DNA of 64,000 nt, from assembly GCA_035541455.1 (NCBI GenBank), contig DATKNH010000013.1, forward strand, positions 4,780-68,779, in the 5' to 3' direction. Origin of the DNA: Syntrophorhabdales bacterium (GTDB lineage Bacteria; Desulfobacterota; Syntrophorhabdia; Syntrophorhabdales; WCHB1-27). A program made the position numbers and the translations under genes. The stretch's first letter is position 1. Every line of letters starts with the position of its first letter. The notes beneath the pieces were generated by a model, which was given only the letters and a program-made list of their open reading frames with translations, was not told the DNA's origin and did no database searches. Below are positions 1 through 42,204 of this stretch, piece after piece.

Positions 1-6
1 TCCTTC

Positions 7-537
7 TTATCCGTACTGCGCTACAAACTGGTCCCACTTGCCCTGTGCCCTTAAAATAAACTCGGCCAGTTCACGGGCTACTCCTCTACCTCCGCCGGCC
101 TTTGTAACGAGGTCAGCGATTGCTCTGGCCTCGGGCGAGCCGTCTGCCGGAGCCACAGAGAAGAAGACCCGCTTCATGATCCCGAGGTCGATCATCTCAT
201 CGCCCACGTAGCATATGTCGTCGTCCTTCAGCCCCGACTGCTTCTCGAACTCGTCGAGCCTTGCCATCTTTGCTGAACTCCCCCAGAGCATATCAGGTGG
301 AACACCGTAAATTGTTGCCATCTGTTCCACGTCTCTCGCGACCTTGCTTGTCAGGAAGGAAACGCCGACGCCGGAATCCATGAGTGCCTTGATACCGATG
401 CGGTCATGGAGGCAGAACGCTTCAGACTTCACGCCGTCCTGTGTGTAAAAGAGCGTGTTGTCTGTGAGTATGCCATGAATATCGAAGATAACGAACTTCA
501 CTTTTTTTGCTTTTTCGGTTGCATCTGCCTGGCTCAT
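7..537 (-). CDS. HAD-superfamily IIIA (KdsC-like) phosphatase-fold protein; candidate PpcD-like (delta) subunit of a phenylphosphate-type carboxylase
   Basis: 176-aa ORF. KdsC-like layout with motif I region KFVIFDIHGILTDN and motif IV-like YVGDEMIDLGIMK. Tandem paralog of 551-1108. Same strand and downstream of a UbiD-family gene. Confidence 0.7.
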   Translation of the reverse strand: MSQADATEKAKKVKFVIFDIHGILTDNTLFYTQDGVKSEAFCLHDRIGIKALMDSGVGVSFLTSKVARDVEQMATIYGVPPDMLWGSSAKMARLDEFEKQSGLKDDDICYVGDEMIDLGIMKRVFFSVAPADGSPEARAIADLVTKAGGGRGVARELAEFILRAQGKWDQFVAQYG

Positions 538-550
538 AGACTCACCCCCC

Positions 551-1108
551 TTATTTGTAACCCATCTTTGTTACCTTCTCCACCCACTCATCCCACTTGC
601 CCATTGACCGCAGGATGAATTCACATACTTCCCTTATCGGGCCTTTGCCCCCTGGCGCTGCGGTCACGTAGTGGGCCAACTCTTTCACTTCTGGAATGGC
701 ATCGGCCACGGCCACCGCAAATCCTGCTTTTTTCATCAGCGGGATATCCGTCAACTCGCAACCGATGTAGCCGATCTGCTCGTCTGTCAGATTCAAATCT
801 TTCTTCAACTCTTCCAGTTTGGCCGCTTTGTCCTTGACTGCAAAATACATCTTGTCCAGCTTCAGCTCCTTCGCCCGATACAATCCTTCCCCATCAATAG
901 AGGTGGAATCGAGGAAAACAGGCTTGATGTCATTTGCCATCATCGACAGATCGCCAAAGCCGTCCATGTGCCAGAAGGCGTAGCGCCTGTTTCCTTCCAC
1001 ATCGCAGAAGACCGTATTAGTCGTCAGTACGCCGTGAATATCATGGGCAAACAGCTTTATCTTCTTTGCTCTCTCTTTCGCAGCGTTCATATCCTTTTCC
1101 GATGCCAT
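551..1108 (-). CDS. HAD-superfamily IIIA (KdsC-like) phosphatase-fold protein, second PpcD-like paralog
   Basis: 185-aa ORF. Motif I region KLFAHDIHGVLTTN, motif IV-like YIGCELTDIPLMK, C-terminal EFILRSMGKWDEW parallel to AEFILRAQGKWDQF in the neighbour. Confidence 0.7.
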   Translation of the reverse strand: MASEKDMNAAKERAKKIKLFAHDIHGVLTTNTVFCDVEGNRRYAFWHMDGFGDLSMMANDIKPVFLDSTSIDGEGLYRAKELKLDKMYFAVKDKAAKLEELKKDLNLTDEQIGYIGCELTDIPLMKKAGFAVAVADAIPEVKELAHYVTAAPGGKGPIREVCEFILRSMGKWDEWVEKVTKMGYK

Positions 1109-1248
1109 CGCTTCTCCCCCTTAGTCTATTAATGGGGCTCGCGTCGCCCCCTCCATCGGCAAAGCCGCCGGAGCCTCCCCTTCTCGCTCGCGGCGCTCGC
1201 TAGATAGATTTCGCGGCCGATCCGCAAGCGGGTCCGGGCTCGCGCTAC

Positions 1249-2667
1249 TCAATCTATTCCATACTCAGCCCATCTGGCCTTCACTTTAGAAAGCATGCCT
1301 TCCGAGAGTTTGATCTCTGAAGGTTTGACCTTCCAATCAAACGGTATGGTGGCGTCCATGATGATGCGTGACGTGATGAACTTGTTTTCGTCGGCGCCGA
1401 TTGCCGGGTCTAGAGGAGTTGACCTTCCCCTGTTGATGATCTGTGTGCCGCGCGAAGGGCTGTAACGCGTCCCCAGCGCCCACCAGACTCTCGGGAGATC
1501 GTCTGCGTCAATATCGTCATCTACGATAATAACGCATTTAATGCCGTAGGTGCCCGTATTACTCGCGATGACCGCAGCCCCTACCTGATCCGCGTGACCG
1601 GGGTACATCTGCTGGACCGAGACCACTACAATGAAACGTCCTGAGCCTTCCGGCAATGTGTAAACCGATTTTATGCCGGGGATCTCCATCTTGGTAAGAT
1701 CGGTCCACAGGGATGCATTACGCGTGAAGGCGTAGAGCATGTGCTGATCACCTACGGGCCTGCCCACGCTTGTCTCCCACAGAATGGGATTGTTTCTGAA
1801 ATAGACGCGCTGTACGTTAAGTGCCGGCTTTGGGATAGGCTTTATCAGCTCCTCCGTGTAGTACCCGGTGTATTCACCGAAGGGCCCTTCGTTACGGAGC
1901 TGCTGCGGGTCGATCTCTCCTTCCAGAACTATCTCCGCAGCAGCGGGAATGGGCAGGCCTGTGAGCTGCCCCTTCACCACTTCAACGGGCTCACCGCGCA
2001 GAGAGCTCACAACATCGTACCCGCTCTTGGCCTTGACGGTCGCAGCGCTCGCAAAGATATGGAGGGGATCCCCGCCTATGATGGCACACGCCGGCATCTT
2101 CTTGCCGGCCTTGCCATACTTCTTCATGATCCGGTCTCCGGTTTTCCCTTTGAGTATCTGGACTCCTATAGTCTTGTTGTCGAGGATGCCCATACGATAG
2201 GTGCCCAGGTTTATGTTCCCCGTCTCCGGGTCCTGCAGAACCATGAATACTGCGGTGCCGAAGTAGCGTCCTCCGTCCAGCTCATAGAATTTCGGAGAAG
2301 GAAAGGCAAACGTGTCCACTTTATCAGCCTCGACGATGTTTTCGAAGATAGGGCCGTCTTTCACTTCCTTCGCCCGAAGCACCTCTTTGACTGCGATATT
2401 CACCCATTCCTTTGTGAGCTGCACCATGGAGAGGTCCGGGTTTTTGCCGAGTATCATCGCCAATCTCTGCGTTGTACCGAACGCACCGGTCAGGACGGGA
2501 CTCTTATATCCCTTCACGTTCTCAAATAGAAGTGCAGGGCCACTTTTCTCTTCAACGATCTTTGCGACATGAGAGATTTCCAGATCCCAATCAACCTCGG
2601 CCTTGACTCTCTTCAGTTGACCTACCTTCTCACACTGTGCCACGAAATCCCGAAGATCCATAGACAC
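1249..2667 (-). CDS. UbiD-family (prFMN-dependent) (de)carboxylase; phenylphosphate carboxylase alpha/beta-like
   Basis: 472-aa ORF. Length and N-terminus (DLRDFVAQCEKVGQLKRVKAEVDWDLEISHV...LFENVKGY) are typical of the UbiD family. Clustered with pps-like and PpcD-like genes. Confidence 0.85.
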   Translation of the reverse strand: MSMDLRDFVAQCEKVGQLKRVKAEVDWDLEISHVAKIVEEKSGPALLFENVKGYKSPVLTGAFGTTQRLAMILGKNPDLSMVQLTKEWVNIAVKEVLRAKEVKDGPIFENIVEADKVDTFAFPSPKFYELDGGRYFGTAVFMVLQDPETGNINLGTYRMGILDNKTIGVQILKGKTGDRIMKKYGKAGKKMPACAIIGGDPLHIFASAATVKAKSGYDVVSSLRGEPVEVVKGQLTGLPIPAAAEIVLEGEIDPQQLRNEGPFGEYTGYYTEELIKPIPKPALNVQRVYFRNNPILWETSVGRPVGDQHMLYAFTRNASLWTDLTKMEIPGIKSVYTLPEGSGRFIVVVSVQQMYPGHADQVGAAVIASNTGTYGIKCVIIVDDDIDADDLPRVWWALGTRYSPSRGTQIINRGRSTPLDPAIGADENKFITSRIIMDATIPFDWKVKPSEIKLSEGMLSKVKARWAEYGID

Positions 2668-2675
2668 CCCCTTTT

Positions 2676-2800
2676 CAGTGAACAGTTAATAGCGAGCAGT
2701 TGAAAGGAACAAACATCCGGTAAACAGTAAATGTATCAGCCGGATCAAGAGAAACGCTGCAGTGTTTACGGCTGCTCACTGCTTACCGCTCACTATTCCA
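2676..2800 (-). repeat. Long imperfect inverted repeat forming a structured 5' leader of the UbiD operon
   Basis: AGTGAACAGTTAATAGCGAGCAG (2677-2699) matches the reverse complement of 2772-2794 at 17/23 positions. An inner pair CCGGTAAACAG (2717-2727) / CAGTGTTTACGG (2760-2771) is also present. Lies between the predicted TSS (about 2802) and the start codon at 2667. Confidence 0.55.
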
Positions 2801-2808
2801 TTTTACCC

Positions 2809-2871
2809 ATTCTATGATATCTGCTTGACATGTCAATTTATTTGTTCTTATATTCTATAAGTAAAACTTAT
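2809..2871 (-). promoter_or_regulatory. Sigma70-type promoter plus LysR-type T-N11-A box for the UbiD/HAD operon; overlaps the divergent LysR promoter and start codon
   Basis: Minus strand reads TTGACA (2836-2831), 16-nt spacer, TAGAAT (2814-2809). The palindrome ATAAG-TAAAA-CTTAT (2857-2871) is centred about -62. The 12-bp perfect palindrome TTGACATGTCAA (2825-2836) also gives a plus-strand -35, followed after 17 nt by TTATAT, for the LysR gene. Confidence 0.6.
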
Positions 2872-3757
2872 GCTTTCCTATTCCCTTGGCTCTCTCATTG
2901 TCTTTTCCAGAGTGGTTCAACACAGAAGTTTCTCCAAGGCGGCGGATGCCCTCCTTATGACGCAGCCGGGAGTTTCGAATCACGTTGCGCAGCTGGAGGC
3001 GCAGACGGGCCTGAAGCTCCTGAAGAGGGACAGGGGAAAATTTGAGCTTACCAAGGAAGGCAGGGTGATCTATCGTTACGCGCAGAAACTGGAAAAGATG
3101 GCAGAGGATCTGGAGAATACTCTGCGCACGTTGCACAAAGAACTGCGCCCTTATCTTCGCATAGGGACTGTGCCTACGTATTCGAGGATCATGATGCCCT
3201 ACGTGCTGGGAGATTTTCAGAAGACGTATCCAAACATAAAGATAAGGCTGGACGTGGGCTCTTCCAATGAAATGAAAAAAAGCCTCGTCGCCGGCCAGAA
3301 CGATATCGTTATCGCAGCCACGCTTCACGTCTCGAAGAAGATGCAAGCCTTCCCGGTCCTGAGGGAGGAACTCGTATTGATAACGGCCAATGGTCACCCT
3401 CTGGCACGCAGGAGGACAGTCTCTCTATCCGACATTAAAGCCTACCCTTTGATTATCAGGGAGGAGGGTTCTGCAACCCGGGATGTGGTGCTTGCAGCCT
3501 TTTCACGAATTGGCATTGCTCCTTCCGTGCTGATCGAAGCAAAAAGTACTGAATTCATCAAGGAGTGGGTAGCGCAAGAAAAGGGTGTTTCCATACTTAT
3601 CAGGCGTGCCGTGAACGAAGAAGAGGATAAGTCCATCACCCGTATCTCTTTACGCGACCCCCTTTTCCTGGAGGTTTCTGTCCTCTTCCTCAAGGCGAGG
3701 CGCTATGATCCTTCAATCCAGAAATTCGTCAGCCACGTGAGAGAACTGCGGTTGTAA
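2870..3757 (+). CDS. LysR-family transcriptional regulator
   Basis: 295-aa ORF with N-terminal wHTH (VVQHRSFSKAADALLMTQPGVSNHVAQLE) and a C-terminal substrate-binding-like domain. Divergent from the UbiD operon. Confidence 0.9.
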   Translation: MLSYSLGSLIVFSRVVQHRSFSKAADALLMTQPGVSNHVAQLEAQTGLKLLKRDRGKFELTKEGRVIYRYAQKLEKMAEDLENTLRTLHKELRPYLRIGTVPTYSRIMMPYVLGDFQKTYPNIKIRLDVGSSNEMKKSLVAGQNDIVIAATLHVSKKMQAFPVLREELVLITANGHPLARRRTVSLSDIKAYPLIIREEGSATRDVVLAAFSRIGIAPSVLIEAKSTEFIKEWVAQEKGVSILIRRAVNEEEDKSITRISLRDPLFLEVSVLFLKARRYDPSIQKFVSHVRELRL

Positions 3758-3771
3758 GCGTCCGATGGAGT

Positions 3772-4191
3772 CTACGTTCTAGTTTTGCATTTCTTGATGA
3801 TTTTTTCTGGAAGCTCGCTGCAGACTTCCTGAACAATCTTTATCTCATCCTCCGTCAGCTTATCCCAGTGAATACCTGCGGTGACTACAGCATTGCGGTT
3901 GAGTCTGCGGGCGAGTTCCTCGGCAAGCGGTTTGACCAGCAGGTCTTCCTTGTGGCCCGCAAATGTGAAGACTGAGCTGGTAGCCGATGTCTCTTCAGGG
4001 TCTTTGAGGCTCTGGCGCGGCTGGGCCATTCCGACGGCGCCTACGTGAGGGTATGTGCCGCCCCATACGGCCACCAGGATGTCCGGACCCATCTCGTAGA
4101 TGATTGCGCTTACCTTGAACTTCCCCTTTCTTACGGATACTGCGCCAGATTTTACAGAAGATGAAAGACCTGTGCCGGGAGCGGCTGCCAC
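3772..4191 (-). CDS. Small conserved soluble protein; possible LpdD-like prenylated-flavin chaperone (tentative)
   Basis: 139-aa ORF (GTG start 1 nt after the upstream stop). Core VAVWGGTYPHVGAVGMAQP. Assignment rests on my recollection of the LpdD family plus UbiD context, so it is weak. Confidence 0.35.
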   Translation of the reverse strand: MAAAPGTGLSSSVKSGAVSVRKGKFKVSAIIYEMGPDILVAVWGGTYPHVGAVGMAQPRQSLKDPEETSATSSVFTFAGHKEDLLVKPLAEELARRLNRNAVVTAGIHWDKLTEDEIKIVQEVCSELPEKIIKKCKTRT

Positions 4192-4192
4192 C

Positions 4193-5425
4193 TTACAGTG
4201 TCCCCGCCCGTGAGGCTCTTATCATGCCGTCAAGAATATCGACCGCCCGCTCTGCGAAAGCAGGTTCGCTTATGTGTACGTCGAGTTCTTCCACGGGTAT
4301 GCGTGGATCAAGGAGCGATTTGAGCTTTTCTGTAAAGATGCGATCAACAGCAGGATCAAAGAGTGCCATACCTTGCTTGTCTGCATCCGACCAGCCTTTC
4401 GTGGGGATGAGCACCCGAGCGGGACCTCTACCTTTATTCAGCTTCTCTGCCACTATGCGAGCAAACTTTTCCATTTCAGGAGCTTCCATGCGCACACAGA
4501 ACCGAGTGTCATGGCCGTGAATTCTTCTTCCCTTCAATTCGTCAGGCATAGGATAATACGGGCTGAATACGGCGTTGTCAAGCCCACCCGGCGCGAAGAT
4601 AAGCGGGATGCCCATTCTGCCCGCGGTCTCAAGCCGCTCCGGTCCTATTCCTTTGCAGTACCCTCCGAACATCTCATCGGCTATCTCATGAGGATTGAAA
4701 TCGAGCGCACCTGCAATGAGGCCTTCTGCGATCATCTCTTCCATCGCCATACCGCCGCAACCATTCGCATGAAAACCGATCATATCGTATCCTCGCGCAT
4801 CCAGAAGCGGCTCTGCGAGCACTGCGCAGCCGGAATTGATCCCGTACGCAGTAACGCCGACCATAGGCCGTTCTGTTCTGATCGTGCTCTCCTTTTCCAT
4901 CATGCCGCAGACGGCATAGGCTGCCTGGGCGAGGATATGGCGCATGAAATCGTTAAACCCCAGAAGGTCTGCTACCGAGTGAAACATCAGGATATCTTTT
5001 GTCCCGACATACTCTCTGACGTCCCGTGACGCGACCGTAGACACGGCCACCTTGGGGAAACCGAAGGGCAGCGACCGCATGATTGAAGTTACTATAGCGG
5101 TTCCCGTACCGCCTCCGAGACCTATGACGCCGTCTATCTGACCTCTTTGTTGAAGGCGCGTTGCGATGATGGCCCCGCCCGTTTGAACGGTCCTGACTGC
5201 ATTTGACCTGGTCTGCTTTGTGATGCTCGCAGCCAGATCTGAGCCGGCTGCAGATGCAAGATCGTCACGCGTAAGGTCGGGAGGCGCCTGGGGTGGGCCG
5301 AGGGTTCCCACGTCCATGAGCATTGTCTTGACGCCCCGCCCCTCGGCGCACTCCTTGATGTAGGCTGCCTCCCGCCCCTTGGTGTCCAGTGTGGCAATAA
5401 CAAGAAGTCTTTTTCGTGAACTCAT
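4193..5425 (-). CDS. UPF0261 / Tm-1-like ATP-binding domain protein
   Basis: 410-aa ORF. N-terminus RLLVIATLDTKGREAAYIKECAEGRGVKTMLMDVGTLGPP matches the characteristic UPF0261 start (xxGTxDTKGxE...vDvg). Confidence 0.7.
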   Translation of the reverse strand: MSSRKRLLVIATLDTKGREAAYIKECAEGRGVKTMLMDVGTLGPPQAPPDLTRDDLASAAGSDLAASITKQTRSNAVRTVQTGGAIIATRLQQRGQIDGVIGLGGGTGTAIVTSIMRSLPFGFPKVAVSTVASRDVREYVGTKDILMFHSVADLLGFNDFMRHILAQAAYAVCGMMEKESTIRTERPMVGVTAYGINSGCAVLAEPLLDARGYDMIGFHANGCGGMAMEEMIAEGLIAGALDFNPHEIADEMFGGYCKGIGPERLETAGRMGIPLIFAPGGLDNAVFSPYYPMPDELKGRRIHGHDTRFCVRMEAPEMEKFARIVAEKLNKGRGPARVLIPTKGWSDADKQGMALFDPAVDRIFTEKLKSLLDPRIPVEELDVHISEPAFAERAVDILDGMIRASRAGTL

Positions 5426-5468
5426 GCAAGCCTGATAGAATTCTCCGCTCGGTTTACTGCCCCTCTTC

Positions 5469-6620
5469 CTAGACGCTTTGGTCTGGCGGTGGGGTTCCGG
5501 GCGGTGTAGGTAGCGTCAATGGCCATCTCAGAAAAAAGGCGTTGTGGGCAATAAAGCCCGGTGCCAAAATACAAAGGTTGAGATAGATGATGAGTATGTT
5601 TATGTCTGCAGGAAGCTTGGCAGCTGCTACACTGTCAGCCACTGGTCCCAATATCACATTGCAGATGGCTATCCAGATGGCGCTGATCACGATCACTATT
5701 ACGAAGGCCGCAACCGCCCTTGCCGCTCCCGTAAGCTTCGTGATCCCCCAGAACTGAAAATGCCAGGAGTAAAAGAGCGACCAGGTGATTATAGAAGAAG
5801 CCACGGCCCCAAAGGAGAACGAGGGGCTGACACCAAGTGCCAGGCTCCCCTGCCAGCAAATCAACGCGAGAATGTGCGAAAGGATGGTCTGGCCTATAGC
5901 TGCTCCGGGATGCCCCCATTTCCTGAACGGCCAGCCCTGCGTTACAAACACCGGGCAGAACACGAAAAACCAGGCGATTGCCCATACAATGTATCCGGTA
6001 AGCCAGTTCACATTGAGAGGACCTTTATGGTCCATCGGGGCATTGGCAACAGGTGTTCCGTCAAGATTGGTCAGGAAATTCCAGACTAGGATGGTAACGA
6101 CCATGACAACAATGAACCCTGCCACCATAGTGCCCCAGGGATGGAGTCGTCCTTTAAAGGGCCAGGTGTTCCAGTTCTTGCCGTAGAGGAGCGTACACCA
6201 GAACCCTATTGCGCCAAACCAGAGATAGAGAGGCCCTATCGGCCACTGCGGATAGACGAACCGCATGAAAAGCAAGATGACAAACGTGAATATGCCCCAC
6301 AGGATGGTCATTTTGACTCCCACTGCGAAGCGAGACATTGCAGGCGTCCAGTTACCTGCAGGAGGCGCGCACGGAAAGCAATCCCCTATAAGTACCAGGT
6401 GCCCTTCCGCGATGAGCATGATAAGAATGGCAGGCAGAAGTTTCAGTACAAGCAATGCCGGCGGCACGGCGTACACAAAAAGAATTGTGCCAAGGATGGT
6501 GAGACCGATGAATTGGATGAGGCCACCCAATCTCCCTTCGGGACCAACACCGATCTTCGATTTCGTATCGTCTCCAAGTACCTCCCCCGCGCCAATTGTT
6601 GCCTCTCTTTCATTCCCCAT
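5469..6620 (-). CDS. Polytopic Trp-rich integral membrane protein, unknown function
   Basis: About 10 hydrophobic segments. Start chosen at MGNEREAT (6620), preceded by GGGGAGAGGAG. The 30-aa basic extension in the ORF track has no RBS. Confidence 0.6.
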   Translation of the reverse strand: MGNEREATIGAGEVLGDDTKSKIGVGPEGRLGGLIQFIGLTILGTILFVYAVPPALLVLKLLPAILIMLIAEGHLVLIGDCFPCAPPAGNWTPAMSRFAVGVKMTILWGIFTFVILLFMRFVYPQWPIGPLYLWFGAIGFWCTLLYGKNWNTWPFKGRLHPWGTMVAGFIVVMVVTILVWNFLTNLDGTPVANAPMDHKGPLNVNWLTGYIVWAIAWFFVFCPVFVTQGWPFRKWGHPGAAIGQTILSHILALICWQGSLALGVSPSFSFGAVASSIITWSLFYSWHFQFWGITKLTGAARAVAAFVIVIVISAIWIAICNVILGPVADSVAAAKLPADINILIIYLNLCILAPGFIAHNAFFLRWPLTLPTPPGTPPPDQSV

Positions 6621-6777
6621 AATCTCCTCTCCCCTTTTTTGTGCACTTGTTCGATGCCTTGCACTATGCGCCGCTTGCCGTTCCCCTCGCGGTCGCTTGC
6701 ATCGCCCCATCTCTACCGATCAGCCGCTTCGAAACCTGCCGCTCTCTTGATCATCCGATGCGATTGAGCATGCGAAC

Positions 6778-7842
6778 CTATTTTATCCTCACCCCCGTCA
6801 GTAACTGGCCTAAGATGCGGTCCATGGCATCTTTCTTCTGTTCAGTTTTTGGCGCAACCTCCTTCTTGCTCCAGACGGATTCAGGTCTCACCTGGAGAAT
6901 GATGATATTTTCGGGGAACTGAAAATCGGCATCGATCCCGAACTCGATGTCGTAAGGTTTTCCATAATAGTTCTCGATCAATTTTCCGACGCGGGCAAGC
7001 TCTTTCAATTCAAAGTGTGTGAGACAGGGAACACACCTCATCTCCTCAGGCACTTCTGTCTGCAGGATGTCGCTCCCATTCTCCCGGTAAACGCATTGGG
7101 TCTCTTTGCTGCCTATGGTTGTCTTTATGGTGTCGAGGGTGATCTTGTCGACAAGGTATGTGTCTGGCGTTACCATGCCGCTGACTACAGCCTCTCCGAG
7201 ACCGCAACTCGCATCAATCGAAATTTTTGAAAGATCGCCGTTCACGGGGTTAATGGTAAAGATTATCCCCGATACTCTGGAGTTGACCATCTTAGGGATA
7301 CCGACGCCTATATTGAAGAGGAACGGCATTCCCTTGTTCATGCGGTACATGATAGCTTCGACATTGTAGGCACTGGCCCAGCATCTCTTGACGTAGTCGA
7401 TAAGGTCCTTTTCTCCGCGTATATTGAGATATGTCTCCATCTGGCCCGGCATGGATACGGCGCCACTCGATCTGACTGCCACAGGACAGACGCCCGTCTT
7501 GCTCCTTTCGCAAAGCTTCTTGTAATTGGCGAGTATATCTTCTTCTATGTCGGATGGTACCTGCGCGTTTTCAATTAAGCGAATGCCTGTTTCGCTTGCC
7601 TGCTTTGCGGTTTCAAATGTCACCTGACCAAGCTCAGTTAGCAGTTTCTCCAGCTCTGATTTTATTCCCGTATCAACAATAAATTTCTCGTTGGCATAAA
7701 TGGTGATGCAAAATCCCGGAGCGACCGGTATGCCCGCTTTGATCATTTCTCCGAGATTGGCATTTTTCTTACCGACGAGTGGAAAGTCGTTACCGTCCAT
7801 TTCGTCGTACCAGATGGTGAGCCTTTTTTCTTTTTCTGTCAT
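6778..7842 (-). CDS. PEP-utilising enzyme, N-terminal ATP-binding (PPDK_N) module; phenylphosphate synthase beta (PpsB)-like
   Basis: FPLVGKKNANLGEMIKAGIPVAPGF resembles the PEP synthase/PPDK nucleotide-binding N-terminus. About 354 aa, with no His-swivel domain. Start at MTEKEK has a GGGGG RBS; the longer start would lie inside a repeat element. Confidence 0.8.
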   Translation of the reverse strand: MTEKEKRLTIWYDEMDGNDFPLVGKKNANLGEMIKAGIPVAPGFCITIYANEKFIVDTGIKSELEKLLTELGQVTFETAKQASETGIRLIENAQVPSDIEEDILANYKKLCERSKTGVCPVAVRSSGAVSMPGQMETYLNIRGEKDLIDYVKRCWASAYNVEAIMYRMNKGMPFLFNIGVGIPKMVNSRVSGIIFTINPVNGDLSKISIDASCGLGEAVVSGMVTPDTYLVDKITLDTIKTTIGSKETQCVYRENGSDILQTEVPEEMRCVPCLTHFELKELARVGKLIENYYGKPYDIEFGIDADFQFPENIIILQVRPESVWSKKEVAPKTEQKKDAMDRILGQLLTGVRIK

Positions 7843-7861
7843 CTTGTTACCCCCGGACTCT

Positions 7862-7953
7862 GAGGCTAAGGCCAAGGTCGAGGTTATGAAATAATTGCAT
7901 GATGCGAAGCGCTGATCTTTTCGTTTTTCTCAACCTCAACCTTAGCCTCAACC
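7862..7953. repeat. Intercistronic hairpin repeat, copy E1 (AAGGNN / NNCCTT word family)
   Basis: Left arm GAGGCTAAGGCCAAGGTCGAGGTT (7862-7885) pairs with right arm AACCTCAACCTTAGCCTCAACC (7932-7953). Shares TTTCGTTTTT (7919-7928) and ACCTCAACCT (7933-7942) with copy E2. Confidence 0.75.
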
Positions 7954-7962
7954 TGTTCTAAC

Positions 7963-9804
7963 CTATTTTGCTCTTTCCAGTATCTGCACTAACCCGGTGT
8001 CGCCGTTGATCCGGAGCAGATCACCCGTTTTTATCAGCTGTGTGCCCTTGCCTGTCCCGACAACGGTCGGCAATCCGTATTCCCTGCAGACAATGGCAGC
8101 GTGGCACATAGGGCCACCCACGTCGGTCACGGCCCCTGCAATCTTGACGAACGCAGGTGCCCAACTGGGCGACGTGGTGGTCGCCACCAGTATCTCTCCC
8201 TCTTGAAGATCAGCAAGCTGGTCCACGGTCTTCAGAACCCGGGCCTTTCCTTCGACCACACCGGATGAGCCTGCAGAGCCCTGGATCTCATTCTGCGCTC
8301 CTCCTTCTGCGGGGCCGGCGAGCCACTTCTGGAGGGCATCGTTGGTGACTCCCCAGAGGACAATGGTGAAGGGCTCTGTCACAACGTCTGGTGGCACGCC
8401 AAGCGCCGGCGGCGGGGTCCACTGTTTGAACTTTTCGTAAACACCCTTTCTCCAGGCAATCTCTTTCGGCCAGTAGGAAGGTCCTCTCGCCCTCACCCCC
8501 GTTGCCCAGGAGGTGACATGATCCCAGAGCGCCTGTTTGATCTCATCACGCCTCAGGAACCAGATGTCCTCGTCGGCATTTTCGATGAATCCCGCATTCT
8601 GAAGGATCTGGCCCACCTGGCGGACCTTCCCCCAGAAAAGGCTGTGAAACCAGTGCTCCACGTAGAAATTATGATCCTCAGCGTAAGGCAACACCAACCG
8701 AGCTATAGCCAGGCCTTGATCGAATGCCTCTCTGTCAGCATCGGTCTTTATCAGCTTCCTGTACTCACCCGCGATCCGATCACGCTCCTTGAGAATCTGG
8801 GCCGTCGGTCTGCCGATCTCCTTGCCTGCTTTAAGGGTTTTAATGTTAGTCCGGATATTATCGAAGGGAACGTTAAGATTATCATTCCAGCTGATATGTG
8901 TGTGATACCAGCCTGTGCCTGTAGACATGTAGAACCACGGGTAGCGCGCTTTTTCCAGTTCCTTGAGCCACTCCTTGCCCACAGGATGCTTCTCCAGTTC
9001 CTTCATGAGCTCATCGGCTTTCAATGGTTTGGCGAATATGTCTTCGATACCGACTTCGATAGCGAGTTTCGCCAGCCTTATCAGTTCAGCATCGGGCTTG
9101 AAAAGGATAGGATCAAAACCGGCCGACATCTTGACCAGCGTTGATATCGGTACATCTGGAAAAATCTGGTTAGCCGTGCCGAAGAAAGTCACCTGCGCAG
9201 CGTAACACAGGTTCAGGAATTCAAAATGATACTGCCAGCACAGCAGGCCAAGGTCGATCAGCTCATCGTATCTTCTGAGGAGCTCGTAGCCGCTCCCCTT
9301 TCCAAGCCCGTCCTTGATGACGCTGATATCCTCCATCACGGGAAGGTCGGTAAAGTTCATTGATTCGAGTTTATCGATCGTGGCGGTCATCTTCTTCTTC
9401 CAGTTTTCATACAACCTGTCCCAGTTCTGGAAATAATACCCTGCGCGCTCCATAAAATGCGGCACCCGCTTTCCCACTTCCTCAGGGTCGGGAACGCCGA
9501 CAGGGCTGATGTACACATACCCGTTAACGATCCTGTGGTCGATGCCGAGGGCGGGCGGGATGATGTAATGGCGGGTGTTATATTGCGAAAGAGCCAGAGA
9601 CCACGCTTCATCCCAGATGAGATCGAAAGGATAATGAGGCTCCGGGTAATGGAGGCCATCATAGAACCATATCTGGCTGCTCTCAAATTTGGCACGTTCA
9701 GGATCTTCTTTGGAGAAGATATACTGATAAGGGTACAGCTTCTCCCAGCCTTCCGTTCCCGGAATCATTGGTACATCGTGTGGGTCCGTAAATGTTTTCG
9801 CCAT
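7963..9804 (-). CDS. PEP-utilising enzyme with C-terminal phospho-histidine swivel domain; phenylphosphate synthase alpha (PpsA)-like
   Basis: 613-aa ORF. C-terminus GEILVATTTSPSWAPAFVKIAGAVTDVGGPMCHAAIVCREYGLPTVVGTG is the PEP-utiliser mobile domain with the catalytic His. Large non-PPDK N-terminal part, as in split phenol-phosphorylating enzymes. Confidence 0.8.
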   Translation of the reverse strand: MAKTFTDPHDVPMIPGTEGWEKLYPYQYIFSKEDPERAKFESSQIWFYDGLHYPEPHYPFDLIWDEAWSLALSQYNTRHYIIPPALGIDHRIVNGYVYISPVGVPDPEEVGKRVPHFMERAGYYFQNWDRLYENWKKKMTATIDKLESMNFTDLPVMEDISVIKDGLGKGSGYELLRRYDELIDLGLLCWQYHFEFLNLCYAAQVTFFGTANQIFPDVPISTLVKMSAGFDPILFKPDAELIRLAKLAIEVGIEDIFAKPLKADELMKELEKHPVGKEWLKELEKARYPWFYMSTGTGWYHTHISWNDNLNVPFDNIRTNIKTLKAGKEIGRPTAQILKERDRIAGEYRKLIKTDADREAFDQGLAIARLVLPYAEDHNFYVEHWFHSLFWGKVRQVGQILQNAGFIENADEDIWFLRRDEIKQALWDHVTSWATGVRARGPSYWPKEIAWRKGVYEKFKQWTPPPALGVPPDVVTEPFTIVLWGVTNDALQKWLAGPAEGGAQNEIQGSAGSSGVVEGKARVLKTVDQLADLQEGEILVATTTSPSWAPAFVKIAGAVTDVGGPMCHAAIVCREYGLPTVVGTGKGTQLIKTGDLLRINGDTGLVQILERAK

Positions 9805-9838
9805 AAATTCCTCCTCCCCTTTTTTTTAGTGGCGCTAA

Positions 9839-10486
9839 CTAGAGTCTGAACCATCGCGGTTCATCGAACCGCTCGGTACAACGCAGCACACGGCTCGCGT
9901 AGTTCAATACATACTTACCCTTCAGCTTTAGGTTGAGTTTTCTAAACTCCTCGTTATTCAGGAGGCGCCCGATGTCCACCGGATCTTTGAAAGTGAACTC
10001 GCTGACGATTTCGCTGACTCCACCAAGAACAACGTTCCATCCGCCTGTCACTTCCATGTAATCTATTTTTTGGATAGTGGGCAGGTATTCCTTGACGATG
10101 AAGTCCGCGTACTCTTTTTTTACTCCCGGCTTCAGGTCGTAGTACTGATTAAATTTCCACACACCTTTCTGAATAGTGTATGTTTCTCGCTTTACCCTGC
10201 CGGTCGGCTCGAGGACGGTGGTCCTGTAGCTGTAGACAAGCGATTTAACATTTAGTGAAAGCTGTTTGAATCGTTCACTCGTAATAACGCGGGAAAGCAG
10301 TTCGAGGTCGGTTGCCAGGTTGACGCCTATCACCCTTGGGCCAAAACCGACCTCAACGTAATAGCCTCCGACCGGCGTGAGCCCTGTAGCTGCTAACTCC
10401 TTCAGGTAGGTACCGGCGATAAAATTCGCGTATTCGTCCTCTTTCCCCGGAATGATGTCATAGGCTGTAGTGAACAGAACAGACAT
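9839..10486 (-). CDS. Internally duplicated protein of unknown function (two alpha+beta-barrel/NIPSNAP-like halves, tentative), first gene of the pps-like operon
   Basis: 215 aa. Half 1 is YDIIPGKEDEYANFIAGTYLKE...ERFKQLSLNVKSLVYSYRTTVLEPTGR. Half 2 is YYDLKPGVKKEYADFIVKEYLPT...EEFRKLNLKLKGKYVLNYASRVLRCTER. AAGGAGG RBS. Confidence 0.5.
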   Translation of the reverse strand: MSVLFTTAYDIIPGKEDEYANFIAGTYLKELAATGLTPVGGYYVEVGFGPRVIGVNLATDLELLSRVITSERFKQLSLNVKSLVYSYRTTVLEPTGRVKRETYTIQKGVWKFNQYYDLKPGVKKEYADFIVKEYLPTIQKIDYMEVTGGWNVVLGGVSEIVSEFTFKDPVDIGRLLNNEEFRKLNLKLKGKYVLNYASRVLRCTERFDEPRWFRL

Positions 10487-10604
10487 AAAAACCTCCTTGG
10501 CTCATCGTGACATTACTTTGCGTGGATCTCATCTCCACACTTGACTAAGGCAGTTCTGACTACGATTGATTTGAATTTTGTGCAAAAACAGAAACATAAC
10601 TGCA

Positions 10605-10667
10605 ATTGTATAATGAGCAGTGAATATGTCAACTAATTTATTTTTATGCTATATAAGAAAAACTTAT
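10605..10667 (-). promoter_or_regulatory. Sigma70-type promoter plus LysR-type T-N11-A box for the pps-like operon
   Basis: Minus strand reads TTGACA (10632-10627), 16-nt spacer, TACAAT (10610-10605). The palindrome ATAAG-AAAAA-CTTAT (10653-10667) lies exactly 20 nt from the -35, the same geometry as at 2809-2871. Confidence 0.6.
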
Positions 10668-10893
10668 ATGAATTTTGACAGACTTGTCCGCAAAAGAGTT
10701 GAGCCGGTAAATCGTAATCTGATAAACTGCGTCATGTCGCCAAAAGATCAGGCTCAAGGTTCAAGGCTAAAGGTTAAAGACAGGGGAGATGCTGGGTTTC
10801 GGCCGCAAACTCGTAGCCCACAACTGGTAAATCGTAACGGTTCTCTAAAGGCTCACCAAGGGATTCTCGGAATAGGCGGATCCGGGTAACCCC

Positions 10894-12132
10894 ATGGCCA
10901 TCCGCCTTCGCCCCTACCTTGAAGTCTACCGCAGCCGGCGTATCGGCCTGATGCTCATCTTCGGTTTCTCGTCGGGTTTGCCCTTCGCTCTCACGGGCGG
11001 AACACTCCAGGCATGGATGACCGTATCAGGAGTGAATCTCCGGACCATGGGCATCTTCTCGGCAATAGGTCTCCCGTATGCGCTCAAATTCCTCTGGTCG
11101 CCTCTTATGGACCGATTCGCAGTGCCGTGGCTGGGAAGACGAAGAGGATGGATCGTTTCCATGCAGGTCCTTCTCTTGCTGGCCATTGTTACCATGGCGT
11201 TTGCATCTCCCGAGCATGGGTTGGGGGTGTTGGCTTTTCTGGCGTTCTCAGTTGCATTCTTTTCTGCTTCACAGGACATTGTGATCGATGCGTACCGGAC
11301 CGATTTGCTGCAAGAGGCCGAACGGGGCGCCGGGACTGCAGTCTACGTGACCGGCTATCGGATTGCCATGCTGGTCTCGGGGGCGGGAGCCCTCATCGTA
11401 TCGGAACGTGCCGGTTGGAGGAATACCTATCTTCTGATGGCCTTTATGATGGTCGTGGGCATGATCGGCACGTTTATGGGGCCTGAACCGGATGGTACGT
11501 GGAGAGCCCCAAGGACGCTGCGGCAAGCCGTATGGGGACCGCTTAAGGATTTTTTCTCCCGCAATCATGCATGTGCCATGCTCGTATTCATTGTGCTGTA
11601 TAAATTGGGAGACGCATACGCCAGCAGCCTGACCACAGCATTCCTCATCGGAGGCATGGGATTTTCCCGGAGCGATGTCGGAGAGGTGAACAAGGCGTTC
11701 GGAATGGTTTCTCTCATTATCGGGGCAGGTATAGGCGGCTCGCTCATGGTACGGCTCGGGCTTTTTCGTGCGCTCCTCTATTTCGGGATTCTTCAGGCGG
11801 TCTCGATCCTTTCGTTCACCGCCCTTGCGCTTGCGGGGAAAAGCTATCCCATGCTTGTATTTGCAGTGGGATTCGAGAATCTCACCGGGGGTATGGGCAC
11901 GTCAGCCTTCGTGGCCTTTCTCATGGGACTCTGTGATCATCGCTACAGCGCGACGCAGTTTGCGCTGCTTTCGTCATTAGCCGTCCTCGGTCGGGTTCTC
12001 ATTTCGCTCTCCTCAGGCCTTGCAGTGGAATTGATAGGGTGGCCGAATTTTTTTCTCCTTGCCACTCTCAGCGCGTTGCCCGGGCTCGCACTTCTCTGGT
12101 GGATGCGTGACGCAGCGATATTCAAGCATTGA
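10894..12132 (+). CDS. ampG: AmpG-family MFS permease (muropeptide / acetyl-CoA transporter family)
   Basis: 412 aa, 12-TM-like. N-terminal signature GFSSGLPFALTGGTLQAWMTVSGVNLRTMGIFSAIGLPYALKFLWSPLMDRF. Confidence 0.8.
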   Translation: MAIRLRPYLEVYRSRRIGLMLIFGFSSGLPFALTGGTLQAWMTVSGVNLRTMGIFSAIGLPYALKFLWSPLMDRFAVPWLGRRRGWIVSMQVLLLLAIVTMAFASPEHGLGVLAFLAFSVAFFSASQDIVIDAYRTDLLQEAERGAGTAVYVTGYRIAMLVSGAGALIVSERAGWRNTYLLMAFMMVVGMIGTFMGPEPDGTWRAPRTLRQAVWGPLKDFFSRNHACAMLVFIVLYKLGDAYASSLTTAFLIGGMGFSRSDVGEVNKAFGMVSLIIGAGIGGSLMVRLGLFRALLYFGILQAVSILSFTALALAGKSYPMLVFAVGFENLTGGMGTSAFVAFLMGLCDHRYSATQFALLSSLAVLGRVLISLSSGLAVELIGWPNFFLLATLSALPGLALLWWMRDAAIFKH

Positions 12133-12161
12133 AATAGTGGCAATAATGGATATGTTTACAC

Positions 12162-13535
12162 ATGCGCCGCATTTCGGCAATACTGTCTTCATTCCTTCTC
12201 CTTGTCGTCCTTTATAACTGCGCCAGCCTCCCCGATGCAAATGACGTTATATACGGCCCGTTAGACCTACGCTCGCCCACAGTGGTCGGCCCTCGGGGTG
12301 AACTCTCGCCCGAGCAAAGCAAGCACATTCTGGACCGACTCGGACGACAGTCCGGGTCGACTGATCTCCTCACGCGGCAGACCATCGTACTCGAGGAAAT
12401 CAGTGGAAGTCCCCTCATTGCCGGGAACAAAGCCACTCTGCTTATAGATGGAGGAGCCACATATGGAGCGATGATGCAGGCGATTGATGGTGCCAGGGAT
12501 CACATCAATTTCGAGACGTTTATCTTCGAAGATGATGATATAGGCCGGCGGTTCGCGGATCTCCTGGTGGAAAAACAGGGACAGGGTGTTCAGGTCAATC
12601 TTATCTATGACAGTGTCGGATCTATGCACACGTCGACCGCTTTTTTTAAGCGCCTGCGGGACTCCGGGGCCAAAGTGCTGGAGTTTAACCCGCTGAATCC
12701 CCTGAAAGCGAAGAAGGTAGATTTCCTGACGCATCGGGATCACCGGAAGATATTGATTGTGGATGGCAAAATAGCGTTTACAGGTGGTGTGAACATAAGC
12801 GGTGTCTATTCCTCCAGTCCCTCCAGTCCTACCTCCAGCGGCAAAGAGCCGTGGCGTGACACCGATGTTCAGATAGAAGGTCCTGCAGTGGCTGAATTAC
12901 AGAAACTCTTTCTGGATACCTGGAAACGGCAGAAGGGCCCGGAGCTTGCGCAGACAAATTTCTTCCCGGAGCTCAAGCGGCAGGGAAGCGACCTGATACA
13001 GGTAATCGGAAGTACGCCGGGTGAGAGTAACCGGGAGACGTACATCATGTATATATCAGCGATCACATTCGCAGAAAAGAGTGTTCACCTGACCGACGCA
13101 TATTTTGTACCGGACAGTCAGACCATGACAGCACTTACCGATGCGGCGAAACGCGGTGTGGACGTGAGATTGATTGTTCCAGGGGTCAGCGACAGCGACC
13201 TTGTCTTTTATGCGGGAAGGTCCCACTATGAGGATCTTCTGGAATCAGGCGTGAAACTGTATGAGCGGAAGGGTGGCATGCTCCATGCCAAGACAGCAGT
13301 GATCGACAGTGTCTGGTCCACGGTTGGTTCAACTAACCTTGACCTCTGGAGCTTCGCGAGAAACGACGAGGTAAATGCAATCATTATCGGCCAGGACTTT
13401 GCCGTTGAGATGGAAAGCATGTTTGCCGCTGACATACAGGCGTCGCAAGGAATCACGCCGGAGGAATGGAGACACCGGGGGGTGATCAATCGCATCAAGG
13501 AGTGGTTCTCGCGTCTCCTTTCGTACTGGCTTTAG
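12162..13535 (+). CDS. Phospholipase D-family cardiolipin synthase-like protein with N-terminal signal/anchor
   Basis: Two HKD motifs: HRKILIVDGKIAFTGGVNIS and LHAKTAVIDSVWSTVGSTNLD. Confidence 0.85.
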   Translation: MRRISAILSSFLLLVVLYNCASLPDANDVIYGPLDLRSPTVVGPRGELSPEQSKHILDRLGRQSGSTDLLTRQTIVLEEISGSPLIAGNKATLLIDGGATYGAMMQAIDGARDHINFETFIFEDDDIGRRFADLLVEKQGQGVQVNLIYDSVGSMHTSTAFFKRLRDSGAKVLEFNPLNPLKAKKVDFLTHRDHRKILIVDGKIAFTGGVNISGVYSSSPSSPTSSGKEPWRDTDVQIEGPAVAELQKLFLDTWKRQKGPELAQTNFFPELKRQGSDLIQVIGSTPGESNRETYIMYISAITFAEKSVHLTDAYFVPDSQTMTALTDAAKRGVDVRLIVPGVSDSDLVFYAGRSHYEDLLESGVKLYERKGGMLHAKTAVIDSVWSTVGSTNLDLWSFARNDEVNAIIIGQDFAVEMESMFAADIQASQGITPEEWRHRGVINRIKEWFSRLLSYWL

Positions 13536-13544: not shown

Positions 13545-14219
13545 ATGATGGAAAAAACAATTGGGTCGTTTGAGTTCAAGCAGTGTGTAATCGTCCCCAA
13601 GTCCACGGGTCAAAGCGCGGCAAACCTCCGCCAGTTAAGAACGCTGTTGACCAGTGTGAGCGATGAGTCGATATTCCACCACACGTATCAATACTTCCTG
13701 TCAGGTCACGTCCTGGAGTATACGAACGCCTTTGCCCATTGGGTTGCGGAGAGCCTTGGCGAAAAGGCGCTTTCGGAGCACTTGTCAAACATTGATCCCT
13801 ATTCCTTTCCTAACATCGAAGCGTTTCGGCACGAGTTGTTGAAAGCGATAGACCTCCGGCTGGAAGCACTCCCTGAGCCTCGCGACGCGATGGTTGGGGA
13901 GGAGTTTTTCTTTAGTGAGGCATTAACCCTCATCTTTCCGTTGCATGTGAGGGCAAGAAATCTCGCAGAGTTTCTCATCGCGATCCGTTACATCGATAAG
14001 AGTTCCATCTACTATCATTTCTATGAGGCGAGGATGCGGCTTGGGGGCGGAACAGATGACTTTTCGAAATGGTTCAGTAACTCCGTTGGCCAGGAGAGCT
14101 TGGGCGAACGACTAAACGCAATAGACCCTTTCATGCACACCCTCGAAGGAATAAGGAATCACATTGTCGAGGCGGTGGAGGATGAAGTGAGAAGGGCTAT
14201 GGAAGAGATAACGTCATGA
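13545..14219 (+). CDS. Conserved hypothetical protein with internal duplication, co-transcribed with treT (DUF5752-like, tentative)
   Basis: 224 aa. Repeat 1 is FHHTYQYF...FAHWVAESLGEKALSEHLSNIDPYSF. Repeat 2 is YYHFYEARM...FSKWFSNSVGQESLGERLNAIDPFMH. Its stop overlaps the treT start (ATGA). Confidence 0.45.
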   Translation: MMEKTIGSFEFKQCVIVPKSTGQSAANLRQLRTLLTSVSDESIFHHTYQYFLSGHVLEYTNAFAHWVAESLGEKALSEHLSNIDPYSFPNIEAFRHELLKAIDLRLEALPEPRDAMVGEEFFFSEALTLIFPLHVRARNLAEFLIAIRYIDKSSIYYHFYEARMRLGGGTDDFSKWFSNSVGQESLGERLNAIDPFMHTLEGIRNHIVEAVEDEVRRAMEEITS

Positions 14220-15436: not shown

Positions 15437-15455
15437 AAAGTCGCGAGACTGGATC

Positions 15456-17300: not shown

Positions 17301-17339
17301 GAGCGACCATGTCTAGGCGTGTGTACGATAGGTCAGAAA

Positions 17340-20300: not shown

Positions 20301-20369
20301 CTAGGCGAGGTGTTTGCAAACTTCCCCGTAGCGCTCTTGAGTTCTTCCCTCTTCACTAGTCAAGGATAG
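17340..20369 (+). CDS. treY: Malto-oligosyltrehalose synthase (GH13)
   Basis: About 1009 aa from MDTDNV. STYRLNFN...LPYMDELGISDVYASP...GYDVVDP...ILDIVPNHM. Follows treZ. Confidence 0.85.
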   Translation: MDTDNVTLPRIPVSTYRLNFNNGFTFSDATKILPYMDELGISDVYASPCFAARKGTVVGYDVVDPTRLNLEIGTEKDYNRFTNELQKRKMGQILDIVPNHMYIEHEDNGWWMDILENGPASPYAAFFDIDWHPVKRELENKVLIPILGDQYGTVLERRELKLIFEKGTFSLTYYDHRLPILPETYMYVLRHGIEKLESLLPVDDASLVELLSILTALSCLPSYTEREQVKLTERSREKEIIKKRLYKLYRENRIMRDLVDENLRTFNGNEKEPHSLDLLDDLLSRQIWRLSYWRVATEEINYRRFFDINSLAAIKMENPVVFQKTHELLLKLIGEGKITGLRVDHPDGLYNPSEYMKRLQRESFLRVRLSDAEREKRKKPGVTDETDLESQLLKDYAEMIVLDPQFKPFYIVGEKILIKGEKLPEDWPVFSSIGYQFLNPVNGIFVDTANSKIFERLYERFTVLKMSYQDLVYEKKRLIMLVSLSGEINTLAHYLNRLSEKNRHTRDFTLNSLRGAIMETIACFPVYRTYITQEGVSERDRRYVEQAIAKAKRKNPTLSQSVFDYLKRVLLIDCPDDFQESDKMEWVEFTMRLQQITGPVMAKGVEDTVFYIYNRLISLNEVGGNPEAFGTSLEAFHGQNLERARSRPHSFLTTSTHDTKRSEDVRARINVLSEIPGEWQRCLGRWARLNVKKKPIIDGQQVPDRNEEYLLYQTLVGSWPGPGHRMDDVKYEDFKRRIREYMVKAIREAKINSSWINPDTPYEEALTNFIDSILQRSERDPFIEDFTLFQNKISYFGMFNSLSQTLLKITSPGVPDFYQGCELWDFSLVDPDNRRPVDFTARQEMLNRLKKGMKRAGGMFTDFAGRLFASWADGAIKLYVIYSALTYRKEHYPLFRHGAYASLAPEGVLKELVCAFARVGDDNVAITAVPRFLTRILRSVDEKPFGNELWQDTTIPIPDEIQPKAYYNIFTGETITAVERDGAMHLRLGEVFANFPVALLSSSLFTSQG

Positions 20370-38221: not shown

Positions 38222-38247
38222 AACAATTCCTCCTTCGTAGTGAATAC

Positions 38248-38373: not shown

Positions 38374-38397
38374 TTTATCTTTTTCCTGTTTTCTGTC

Positions 38398-39792: not shown

Positions 39793-39833
39793 TAATAAGC
39801 CCTCCTTAAGGAACACATTTCACGCTAGAGTAA

Positions 39834-42201: not shown

Positions 42202-42204
42202 CTA

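Follow-up and report, generated by a model that had tools for sequence, protein, structure and literature searches.

Comparative analysis of a phenol-activation cluster from a Syntrophorhabdales bacterium, with a MarK-family protein, a tandem ferredoxin-like protein and twin delta-like HAD proteins

Introduction

Phenylphosphate synthase has subunits of about 70 kDa (PpsA), 40 kDa (PpsB) and 24 kDa (PpsC), and phenylphosphate carboxylase has, beside its UbiD-family subunits, a gamma of about 10 kDa and a HAD/KdsC-like delta of about 18 kDa. In the described phenol systems of Thauera aromatica and Aromatoleum aromaticum (ppsABC, ppcBCAD), a split dikinase, formed by the His-swivel protein PpsA and the ATP-grasp protein PpsB, is combined with a carboxylase in which two subunits are of the UbiD type, the delta is a HAD-type protein and the gamma is small, and a UbiD-like gene and ubiX lie downstream (PMC6114531, PMC5946492). 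These systems also possess a CBS-type dikinase gamma subunit, PpsC (about 24 kDa, AcuB-like), which is not essential for activity (PMC6114531), and their regulator is the sigma-54 activator PheR (PMC10715001). PpsAB and PpcABCD are likewise the published phenol route of Syntrophorhabdus (PMC10989887, PMC5946492). The Pps-Ppc operon of S. aromaticivorans UI is attributed to Nobu et al. 2015 in PMC10989887, through which we cite it, and a drawing and comparison of the Syntrophorhabdus operon, including the UbiD-like PpcX and the UbiX-like PpcY downstream, have been published (PMC5946492). Here we analyse a locus that belongs to this last family. It lies at positions 7..10486 of a 64,000-nucleotide stretch of a Syntrophorhabdales bacterium (assembly GCA_035541455.1, contig DATKNH010000013.1, positions 4,780 to 68,779 of the forward strand); by "the window" we mean this whole stretch.

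Smaller gene sets are known from other strict anaerobes. The 'phe' clusters of Desulfatiglans anilini and Geobacter metallireducens link ppsAB to a PpcB-type UbiD gene and ubiX, and the aniline system of D. anilini has two beta-type UbiD subunits without alpha, gamma and delta, and a Pas-alpha that is 27% identical to Pps-alpha (PMC7500099). The phenylphosphate route consumes two ATP equivalents, and how low-energy sulfate reducers and syntrophs can afford this is an open question (PMC6114531). Two further proteins are relevant to the accessory genes of our locus. MarK (Saro_1862) of Novosphingobium aromaticivorans, described in 2025, is the first UPF0261 member whose activity is known: acetovanillone and other aromatics receive a phosphoryl group on their phenolic OH, and ATP is converted to ADP (PMC12624787). 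LpdD, associated with the gallate decarboxylase of Lactiplantibacillus plantarum, functions as a chaperone for reduced prenylated flavin mononucleotide (prFMNH2) (PMC10865409).

Results

A Syntrophorhabdus-type cluster that continues past the window edge

Genes at 7..10486 were checked by open reading frame (ORF) listing and by Pfam and NCBIfam profile searches, with NCBIfam equivalog models standing in for the Thauera Pps and Ppc reference sequences. Every gene listed in a preliminary description of this DNA was found again, and all lie on the minus strand except that of a LysR-type regulator. The encoded proteins are 100% identical to entries HVN22544-HVN22553 of a Syntrophorhabdales metagenome-assembled genome (MAG), and the GTDB genomes nearest to the locus are Syntrophorhabdales. 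The region is very probably the right-hand two thirds of an anaerobic phenol-activation cluster. Its core is a phenol system of the ordinary, known Syntrophorhabdus kind, while the accessory genes are the part worth testing. What follows on gene content, family membership, synteny and conserved residues is observed directly in the locus. PpsA and PpcB both score above their NCBIfam cut-offs, which bears out the earlier assignment of the locus to ATP-dependent, phenol-type phosphorylation and carboxylation.

The split pair resembling phosphoenolpyruvate (PEP) synthase is present as first described. Its PpsA-like subunit (7963..9804, minus strand; 613 aa) scores 887 bits on NF006152 against a cut-off of 723, has a PEP-utilizers domain (PF00391) at residues 534-604, and carries ...TDVGGPMCHAAIVCREYGLP, with the catalytic His568. 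The segment T560-x-x-G-G-x-x-C-H568 agrees with T/SxxGGxxxH, the swivel motif of the HpeH/PpsA dikinases (PMC12167813). The residue before the catalytic histidine is Cys, where Thauera and Aromatoleum have Ser. The protein is 75% identical to that of S. aromaticivorans UI, and a search for a solved structure covering its substrate-binding part found none. The PpsB-like ATP-grasp subunit (6778..7842, minus strand) is encoded 120 nt downstream of ppsA and is 354 aa long in metagenome gene calls as well; it matches PF01326 (PPDK_N) at 301 bits and contains GKKNANLGEM. Of the PEP synthase models, PpsB covers the N-terminal third only. We reject a PEP synthase or rifampicin phosphotransferase identity for the pair, as scores lie far under the cut-offs of both kinds of model and coverage is partial; the condition that the preliminary description had named as damaging to its proposal, membership of one of these groups, finds no support here.

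PpcB, phenylphosphate carboxylase's beta subunit (1249..2661, minus strand; UbiD family, 470 aa), scores 677.6 bits on TIGR02724 (cut-off 468.95) and is named phenylphosphate carboxylase subunit beta by NCBI. A ribosome-binding site, AAGGGGG, stands 5' of its ATG at 2661, and its N-x-G-x-Y-R and E-G-P-F-G-E motifs are intact. Two delta-like HAD genes follow, and window position 1 is 6 nt past the stop codon of the second (7-537). The preliminary description had read from this stretch a single UbiD gene and two KdsC-like HAD genes, with gamma, second UbiD subunit and UbiX absent. Within 7..10486 that count is right, but it does not describe the operon, since PpcA and PpcX lie past the edge. Metagenome contigs found through exact-protein look-ups (L001-L004, L007) match window 1..12661 at 99.8-99.97% identity along their entire overlap, and on every one that is long enough the operon goes on with five genes left of position 1 (L002 12705-16824).

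The first of these, on a 99.97%-identical contig, encodes PpcA, a 481-aa UbiD protein with intact UbiD signature motifs (L002:12705-14150; TIGR02723, 664 bits against a cut-off of 564.6). It is followed by an 84-aa ORF of the Phenyl_P_gamma (PpcC) type, with a precomputed match to PF09662, by a third UbiD-like gene (PpcX, 444 aa), by ubiX (L002:15749-16342; NF004685, 266.7 bits against 188), and by a gene for a 129-aa protein resembling CTP-dependent riboflavin kinase (L002 16435-16824, about 3.8-4.2 kb left of position 1), with weak scores to the archaeal RibK family. Related genomes contain ppcA, ppcC, the third UbiD-like gene and ubiX too. Because the near-identical contigs carry these four genes past position 1, their apparent absence is an edge artefact. 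In gene order the carboxylase consists of beta, the putative delta and delta', alpha and the putative gamma, with PpcX/UbiX after them; a full Thauera-like alpha-beta-gamma-delta set is thus assigned where a variant or reduced carboxylase had been proposed. The search left of position 1 that the preliminary description recommended, made on the near-identical contigs, recovers ppcA, ubiX and a candidate ppcC, and its "non-canonical subunit set" fails for the carboxylase, being mostly a product of the window edge. More generally, gene absences at the edge of a window are no evidence. Just past the operon end, on the opposite strand, L002 16808-18444 encodes a fumarylacetoacetate-hydrolase-family protein and a 253-aa protein without a family match.

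Related loci fall into full and reduced layouts

For the comparison, 15 proteins of the cluster were run by tblastn against 80 genome loci, with PpsA as the anchor. The window has the layout that we call type 1: the 215-aa protein X215 followed by PpsA and PpsB, the LysR gene, and then PpcB-HAD-HAD-PpcA-PpcC-UbiD-UbiX and the riboflavin-kinase-like gene. The full set and its order are shared with GTDB genomes L013 and L070, and the same set recurs in permuted form, with the ppc module before pps, in L014 and L017-L021. For S. aromaticivorans UI (L034), which is in culture and degrades phenol, the fetched flank shows the same layout to its end (X215-PpsA-PpsB-UPF0261-LpdD, divergent LysR, PpcB-HAD-HAD...), at 62-82% protein identity; relative to its operon, the window, L011-13 and L070 carry in addition a gene for a 383-aa membrane protein after ppsB.

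Types 2 and 3 (L028-L039 and L076, which are Syntrophorhabdus MAGs; L069, L075-L090) run in the order LysR, a PpcB-like UbiD protein (about 52% identity), (X215)-PpsA-PpsB, a 550-aa AMP ligase, LpdD and UbiX. They have up to three UPF0261 paralogs and are without alpha, gamma and delta subunits. In this they are similar to the reduced Desulfatiglans and Geobacter clusters (PMC6114531), whereas the window's cluster has alpha, gamma-like and delta-like genes, lacks the AMP-ligase gene, and is of the Thauera-like full type.

Where the cluster does depart from the Thauera paradigm, in features that are conserved, is in the probable replacement of PpsC, in its twin delta and in the accessory genes that it contains. 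Set against Thauera and Aromatoleum, the window has no CBS-type PpsC but a conserved tandem ferredoxin-like protein upstream of ppsA, two delta-like genes, a LysR regulator, and extra genes for UPF0261, LpdD-like, membrane and riboflavin-kinase-like proteins. The three extra genes already seen inside the operon, for the membrane protein, the UPF0261 protein and the small protein, are all confirmed. Among these departures the putative MarK-like kinase is the most interesting lead.

The UPF0261 protein keeps ATP-site and phenol-site residues of MarK

The UPF0261 protein, also describable as Tm-1-like ATP-binding, is a putative small-molecule kinase of the MarK family (4193..5425, minus strand; PF06792 195 bits, PF23189 209 bits). 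It aligns with MarK (PDB 9mpy) over its full length (residues 2-401, E=9e-59, 31% identity) and has the same two-domain architecture. The ATP-site residues D14-T15-K16 are kept, as are G195, H219, which in MarK contacts the phenolic oxygen, and the stacking histidine H305 (His304 in MarK). It differs from MarK in that the ketone-oxygen ligand H348, linked to acetovanillone specificity, is Ala and F283 is Asn. K16, G195, H219 and H305 are present in all of the orthologs at 60-88% identity, and 20 relatives have the same pattern. These residues are conserved in most of the UPF0261 family (PMC12624787); being common across the family, they are not specific to one substrate. In type-2/3 clusters the other UPF0261 paralogs have lost H219 and H304, and the paralog adjoining the UbiD gene is one that has lost the phenol-site histidines.

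The genomic setting differs from that of MarK, which acts in a biotin-dependent acetovanillone pathway, while the window protein is encoded within an anaerobic UbiD carboxylase cluster. Its gene is followed directly by the lpdD-like gene in 19 of the 21 ortholog loci, and in most loci its other neighbour is ppsB or the membrane protein gene. As it borders on both ppsB and lpdD-like, context cannot separate a second, cheaper phenol kinase from a cofactor-related kinase. In the literature that we searched, 'UPF0261' and 'UbiD' occur together in no paper. Neither X215 nor UPF0261 is discussed in the literature on the Syntrophorhabdus operon, as far as it was searched.

X215 occurs where a CBS-type PpsC does not

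X215 (9839..10486, minus strand; 215 aa) consists of two tandem ferredoxin-like domains of the dimeric alpha+beta barrel kind (NIPSNAP/ABM-like), and its halves are 32% identical (E=5e-12). It has no Pfam or NCBIfam match, and its distant relatives searched against Pfam gave marginal NIPSNAP similarity and nothing more. An AlphaFold2 model (mean predicted local distance difference test score 88.6, predicted template modelling (TM) score 0.83) has two beta-alpha-beta-beta-alpha-beta domains. The best PDB folds for this model are 3f44, 3mcs and 2pgc, at a TM score of about 0.6; structural neighbours, at 10-14% identity, include ABM-type 'putative monooxygenases', HemQ/Cld and chalcone isomerase. 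The family is small, with 185 representatives among 1.84 billion. The preliminary description had placed an unrelated duplicated-domain protein in the PpsC position: the duplicated domain is borne out, but the position is not that of ppsC, which lies downstream of ppsB, as X215 is encoded upstream of ppsA.

The gene stands directly upstream of ppsA (14-135 nt) in about 52 of 75 informative loci, in Syntrophorhabdales, Desulfatiglandales, Actinomycetota and Campylobacterota. Its occurrence follows that of one PpsB subfamily: it accompanies a PpsB of at least 60% identity and is found in no locus with a PpsB of roughly 40% (p=1e-13). CBS genes are present in none of the 52 X215-bearing loci and in 8 of the 23 without X215 (Fisher p=3e-5); as the compared loci are phylogenetically related, such Fisher p-values overstate their independence, and this counts against the strength of the association. 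The CBS-type, PpsC-like proteins (two CBS domains; 216-245 aa when full length) are those of L062, L075, L077, L082, L084, L086, L087 and L089, the two-CBS match of L086 being cut by the locus end. No CBS domain was detected in any gene of the window's cluster or in the other window genes scanned. Since X215 and CBS-type PpsC-like genes never co-occur, X215 is probably a non-homologous replacement of PpsC and the third component of this dikinase subfamily.

One of the twin delta-like HAD proteins has lost a motif IV aspartate

The two delta-like HAD paralogs (paralog 1, 551..1108, minus strand, 185 aa; paralog 2, 7..537, minus strand, 176 aa) are 40% identical to each other. On TIGR02726, whose cut-off is 281.95, they score 114.6 and 109.8 bits, and these scores equal those on KdsC (114.8 bits for paralog 1). 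We reject a KdsC identity on motif I together with synteny. Motif I is D-I-H-G in both; across the loci, delta-like HADs linked to ppcA/B/C have D-[IV]-H-G, whereas KdsC has D-x-D-G, and the lone KdsC-type exception is in L089 (35% identity, DVDG). Loss of the Asp+2 general acid fits the release of phenolate, not phenol.

The paralogs part company at motif IV. In the 185-aa protein it reads G-C-E..D; the first Asp is gone, and in relatives too its place is taken by C or S. This paralog is, judging from its motifs, probably catalytically degenerate. The 176-aa protein has G-D-E-M-I-D, like the single delta of the actinobacterial clusters L050/54/55/57, which makes it the likely functional PpcD. 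Twin deltas are found in all Syntrophorhabdales type-1 loci that are long enough, and also in the Desulfatiglandales contig L095.

Cofactor genes, membrane protein and regulation

The LpdD-type prFMNH2-binding chaperone (3772..4191, minus strand; 139 aa) matches PF21758 at 124 bits (cut-off 27). Like LpdD of L. plantarum, it is a small PF21758 protein linked to UbiD and UbiX genes (PMC10865409); unlike it, the window gene is coupled to UPF0261 within a kinase operon and is not beside its UbiD partner. The cluster encodes, counting ubiX past position 1, both a flavin prenyltransferase and an LpdD-type chaperone. The riboflavin-kinase-like gene stands 3' of ubiX in Syntrophorhabdales and directly 3' of ppsB in actinobacterial and other clusters (it is also present in L045, L047, L049, L050, L054, L055 and L057), and its product may supply FMN for prFMN.

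The polytopic membrane protein (5469..6620, minus strand; 383 aa, about 9-10 hydrophobic segments by hydropathy) has no Pfam or NCBIfam match. All of its 118 homologs come from Desulfobacterota-like anaerobes. The gene lies beside pps genes in four arrangements (L011-13, L070, L042, L094 and L095), but not in L093, a Desulfosarcina-like contig. It may handle the phenolic substrate, by uptake or sensing.

The LysR-type regulator gene (2870..3757, plus strand; HTH_1 and LysR_substrate domains) is divergent from ppcB, and its position is unchanged in most related loci. Between the two lie overlapping divergent promoter-like sites (2809..2854): TTGACA-16-TAGAAT on the minus strand (2836-2809) and TTGACA-18-TATATT on the plus strand (2825-2854). 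A sigma-70-like promoter candidate, TTGACA-16-TACAAT (10605..10632, minus strand; 11/12 matches), precedes the X215-ppsA-ppsB unit. All of these are consensus matches only.

Discussion

We can now propose how the cluster might work. Two transcription units are predicted. The first would run on the minus strand from 10486 to 3772 and comprise X215, ppsA, ppsB and the genes for the membrane, UPF0261 and LpdD-like proteins. The second would start from ppcB (2661), divergent from the LysR gene, and run off the window in the order ppcB, delta-like 1, delta-like 2, ppcA, ppcC, PpcX, ubiX and the riboflavin-kinase-like gene. PpsB would bind ATP and diphosphorylate PpsA at His568; after loss of the gamma-phosphate, the phospho-histidine would phosphorylate phenol, giving phenylphosphate, AMP and Pi. 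In this step X215 would most likely be the stimulating accessory protein, as CBS-type PpsC is in Thauera. The HAD-type delta would then take the phosphoryl group from phenylphosphate and release phenolate, which the UbiD-type alpha/beta/gamma core would carboxylate at the para position to 4-hydroxybenzoate. UbiX, the LpdD-like chaperone and perhaps the riboflavin-kinase-like protein would supply the prenylated flavin.

Several points weigh against this scheme. The locus was read as genes only, and we infer its chemistry and substrate from characterised homologs, as we do what X215, UPF0261 and the second delta contribute. For the left part of the operon the sequence came from near-identical metagenome contigs and not from the record of the window itself. 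The gamma subunit (TIGR02725, 43 bits against 135.55) and both deltas (110-115 bits against 281.95) fall below their equivalog cut-offs, so their assignment rests on family and position. Finally, the substrates of two-component aryl dikinases include several phenolics as well as aniline (PMC12167813, PMC7500099); given this diversity, phenol is assigned as the substrate from the linked PpcABCD genes.

How far do the alternatives account for the same genes? A genuinely reduced or variant carboxylase, with one UbiD protein, two deltas and neither gamma, second UbiD nor UbiX, and working by a different mechanism on phenol or another substrate, would match what is visible at 7..10486, and PpcB-only sets are known, both from Desulfatiglans and Geobacter (PMC6114531) and from the type-2/3 loci. 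We regard it as highly improbable here: the window stops 6 nt from the last HAD gene, the 99.97% identical contigs go on with ppcA, ppcC, the UbiD-like gene and ubiX, and related genomes carry the same fuller set. Chance adjacency of housekeeping genes (PEP synthase fragments, KdsC and a UbiD of quinone synthesis) is scarcely credible, and of all the readings is given the least weight. It agrees with the JGI and NCBI labels 'pyruvate, water dikinase' and 'KDO 8-P phosphatase', but both Pps proteins stay under every PEP synthase cut-off with partial model coverage, the HADs have D-x-H in place of the D-x-D of KdsC, and the cluster is kept as a unit across phyla. That these enzymes work on something other than phenol (such as p-cresol, catechol, hydroquinone or aniline) deserves more weight but is still improbable. 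The dikinase family covers phenol, 4-cresol, hydroxyphenylethanones and aniline (PMC12167813, PMC7500099), relatives have several pps paralogs per genome (L026/L043, L027/L044), and the gamma and delta proteins are divergent. However, PpcA and PpcB exceed equivalog cut-offs built on the phenol enzyme, and phenol supports growth of the nearest relative in culture that has this layout (L034; PMC10989887). For aniline in particular, the two beta-type subunits of the D. anilini system, its lack of gamma and delta, and the low identity of Pas-alpha to Pps-alpha tell against the idea; given the alpha, gamma-like and delta-like genes of our cluster, we reject an aniline (phenylphosphoamidate) system of that kind (compare PMC7500099).

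The accessory genes are where the weighing is closest. UPF0261 and the LpdD-like protein could, together with PpcX, UbiX and the riboflavin-kinase-like protein, form a cofactor-supply or second-route module outside phenol phosphorylation, in which UPF0261 phosphorylates a cofactor precursor (prenol to dimethylallyl phosphate) and PpcX, UbiX and LpdD make up an ATP-independent 4-hydroxybenzoate decarboxylase or phenol carboxylase; Ju and Zhang have proposed PpcX/PpcY as a 4-hydroxybenzoate decarboxylase (PMC5946492). The tight pairing of UPF0261 with the lpdD-like gene speaks for such a module, as do a further UPF0261 paralog 3' of ubiX in type-2/3 clusters (4 loci) and an HD-domain phosphohydrolase gene directly after the UPF0261 paralog in L069, with more HD genes alongside UbiX/UPF0261 genes in the L078 and L087 clusters. 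The pairing is not obligate, however: UPF0261 lies 3' of ppsB without an lpdD-like gene in L023, L058 and L095, and the lpdD-like gene occurs without UPF0261 in L040, L063, L066 and L076. Moreover, the sole known activity of the family is the phosphorylation of phenolic OH groups (PMC12624787). We consider the module unlikely, though a possibility to be taken seriously. Our own proposal for these genes, that UPF0261 is a kinase like MarK, forming ADP and taking phenol or a related phenolic as its substrate, and that X215 is an unrecognised third aryl-dikinase subunit in place of the CBS-type PpsC, is more tentative still when both parts are taken together, and we hold it to be rather doubtful.

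The proposal of a UPF0261 phenolic kinase and a third dikinase subunit has clear consequences. If true, the UPF0261 route would cost syntrophic and other strictly anaerobic phenol degraders one ATP equivalent, not two, and X215 would be a previously unrecognised third subunit across a large aryl-dikinase subfamily. The operon of the main methanogenic phenol degraders holds a MarK-family member, X215, probably in place of PpsC, and a duplicated, motif-altered delta, and X215, UPF0261 and the twin delta are each open to direct biochemical experiment.

Other genes in the window

The cluster's right flank (AmpG, cardiolipin synthase, DUF5752, TreT, amylases) has no connection with phenol activation. 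Within it, 13545-20369 encodes DUF5752, a TreT-like trehalose synthase and two alpha-amylase-family proteins, and is probably a trehalose/glucan module.

A further UbiD-family gene lies at 38398-39816; it scores about 120 bits on both Ppc models and is a generic UbiD, not a Ppc subunit. It belongs to a minus-strand cluster (37199-46944) that also contains genes for a homolog of the LarA-like nickel-pincer racemase (40906-42201), a TAXI-TRAP binding protein (39834-40862), three DctP proteins, DctQM and a GntR regulator. This cluster may serve to take up and decarboxylate an aromatic or hydroxy-acid.

At 47080-58158, two 2-oxoacid:ferredoxin oxidoreductase gene sets (POR_N, TPP_enzyme_C and POR gamma, with Fer4/pyridine-nucleotide-disulfide oxidoreductase partners) flank a GntR gene (51501-52313), and a further DctP gene comes after them. 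The segment 58873-63930, with a G+C content of 0.60 against about 0.53, encodes a CheB-CheR fusion with PAS domains (969 aa) and a hybrid PAS histidine kinase/response regulator (654 aa).

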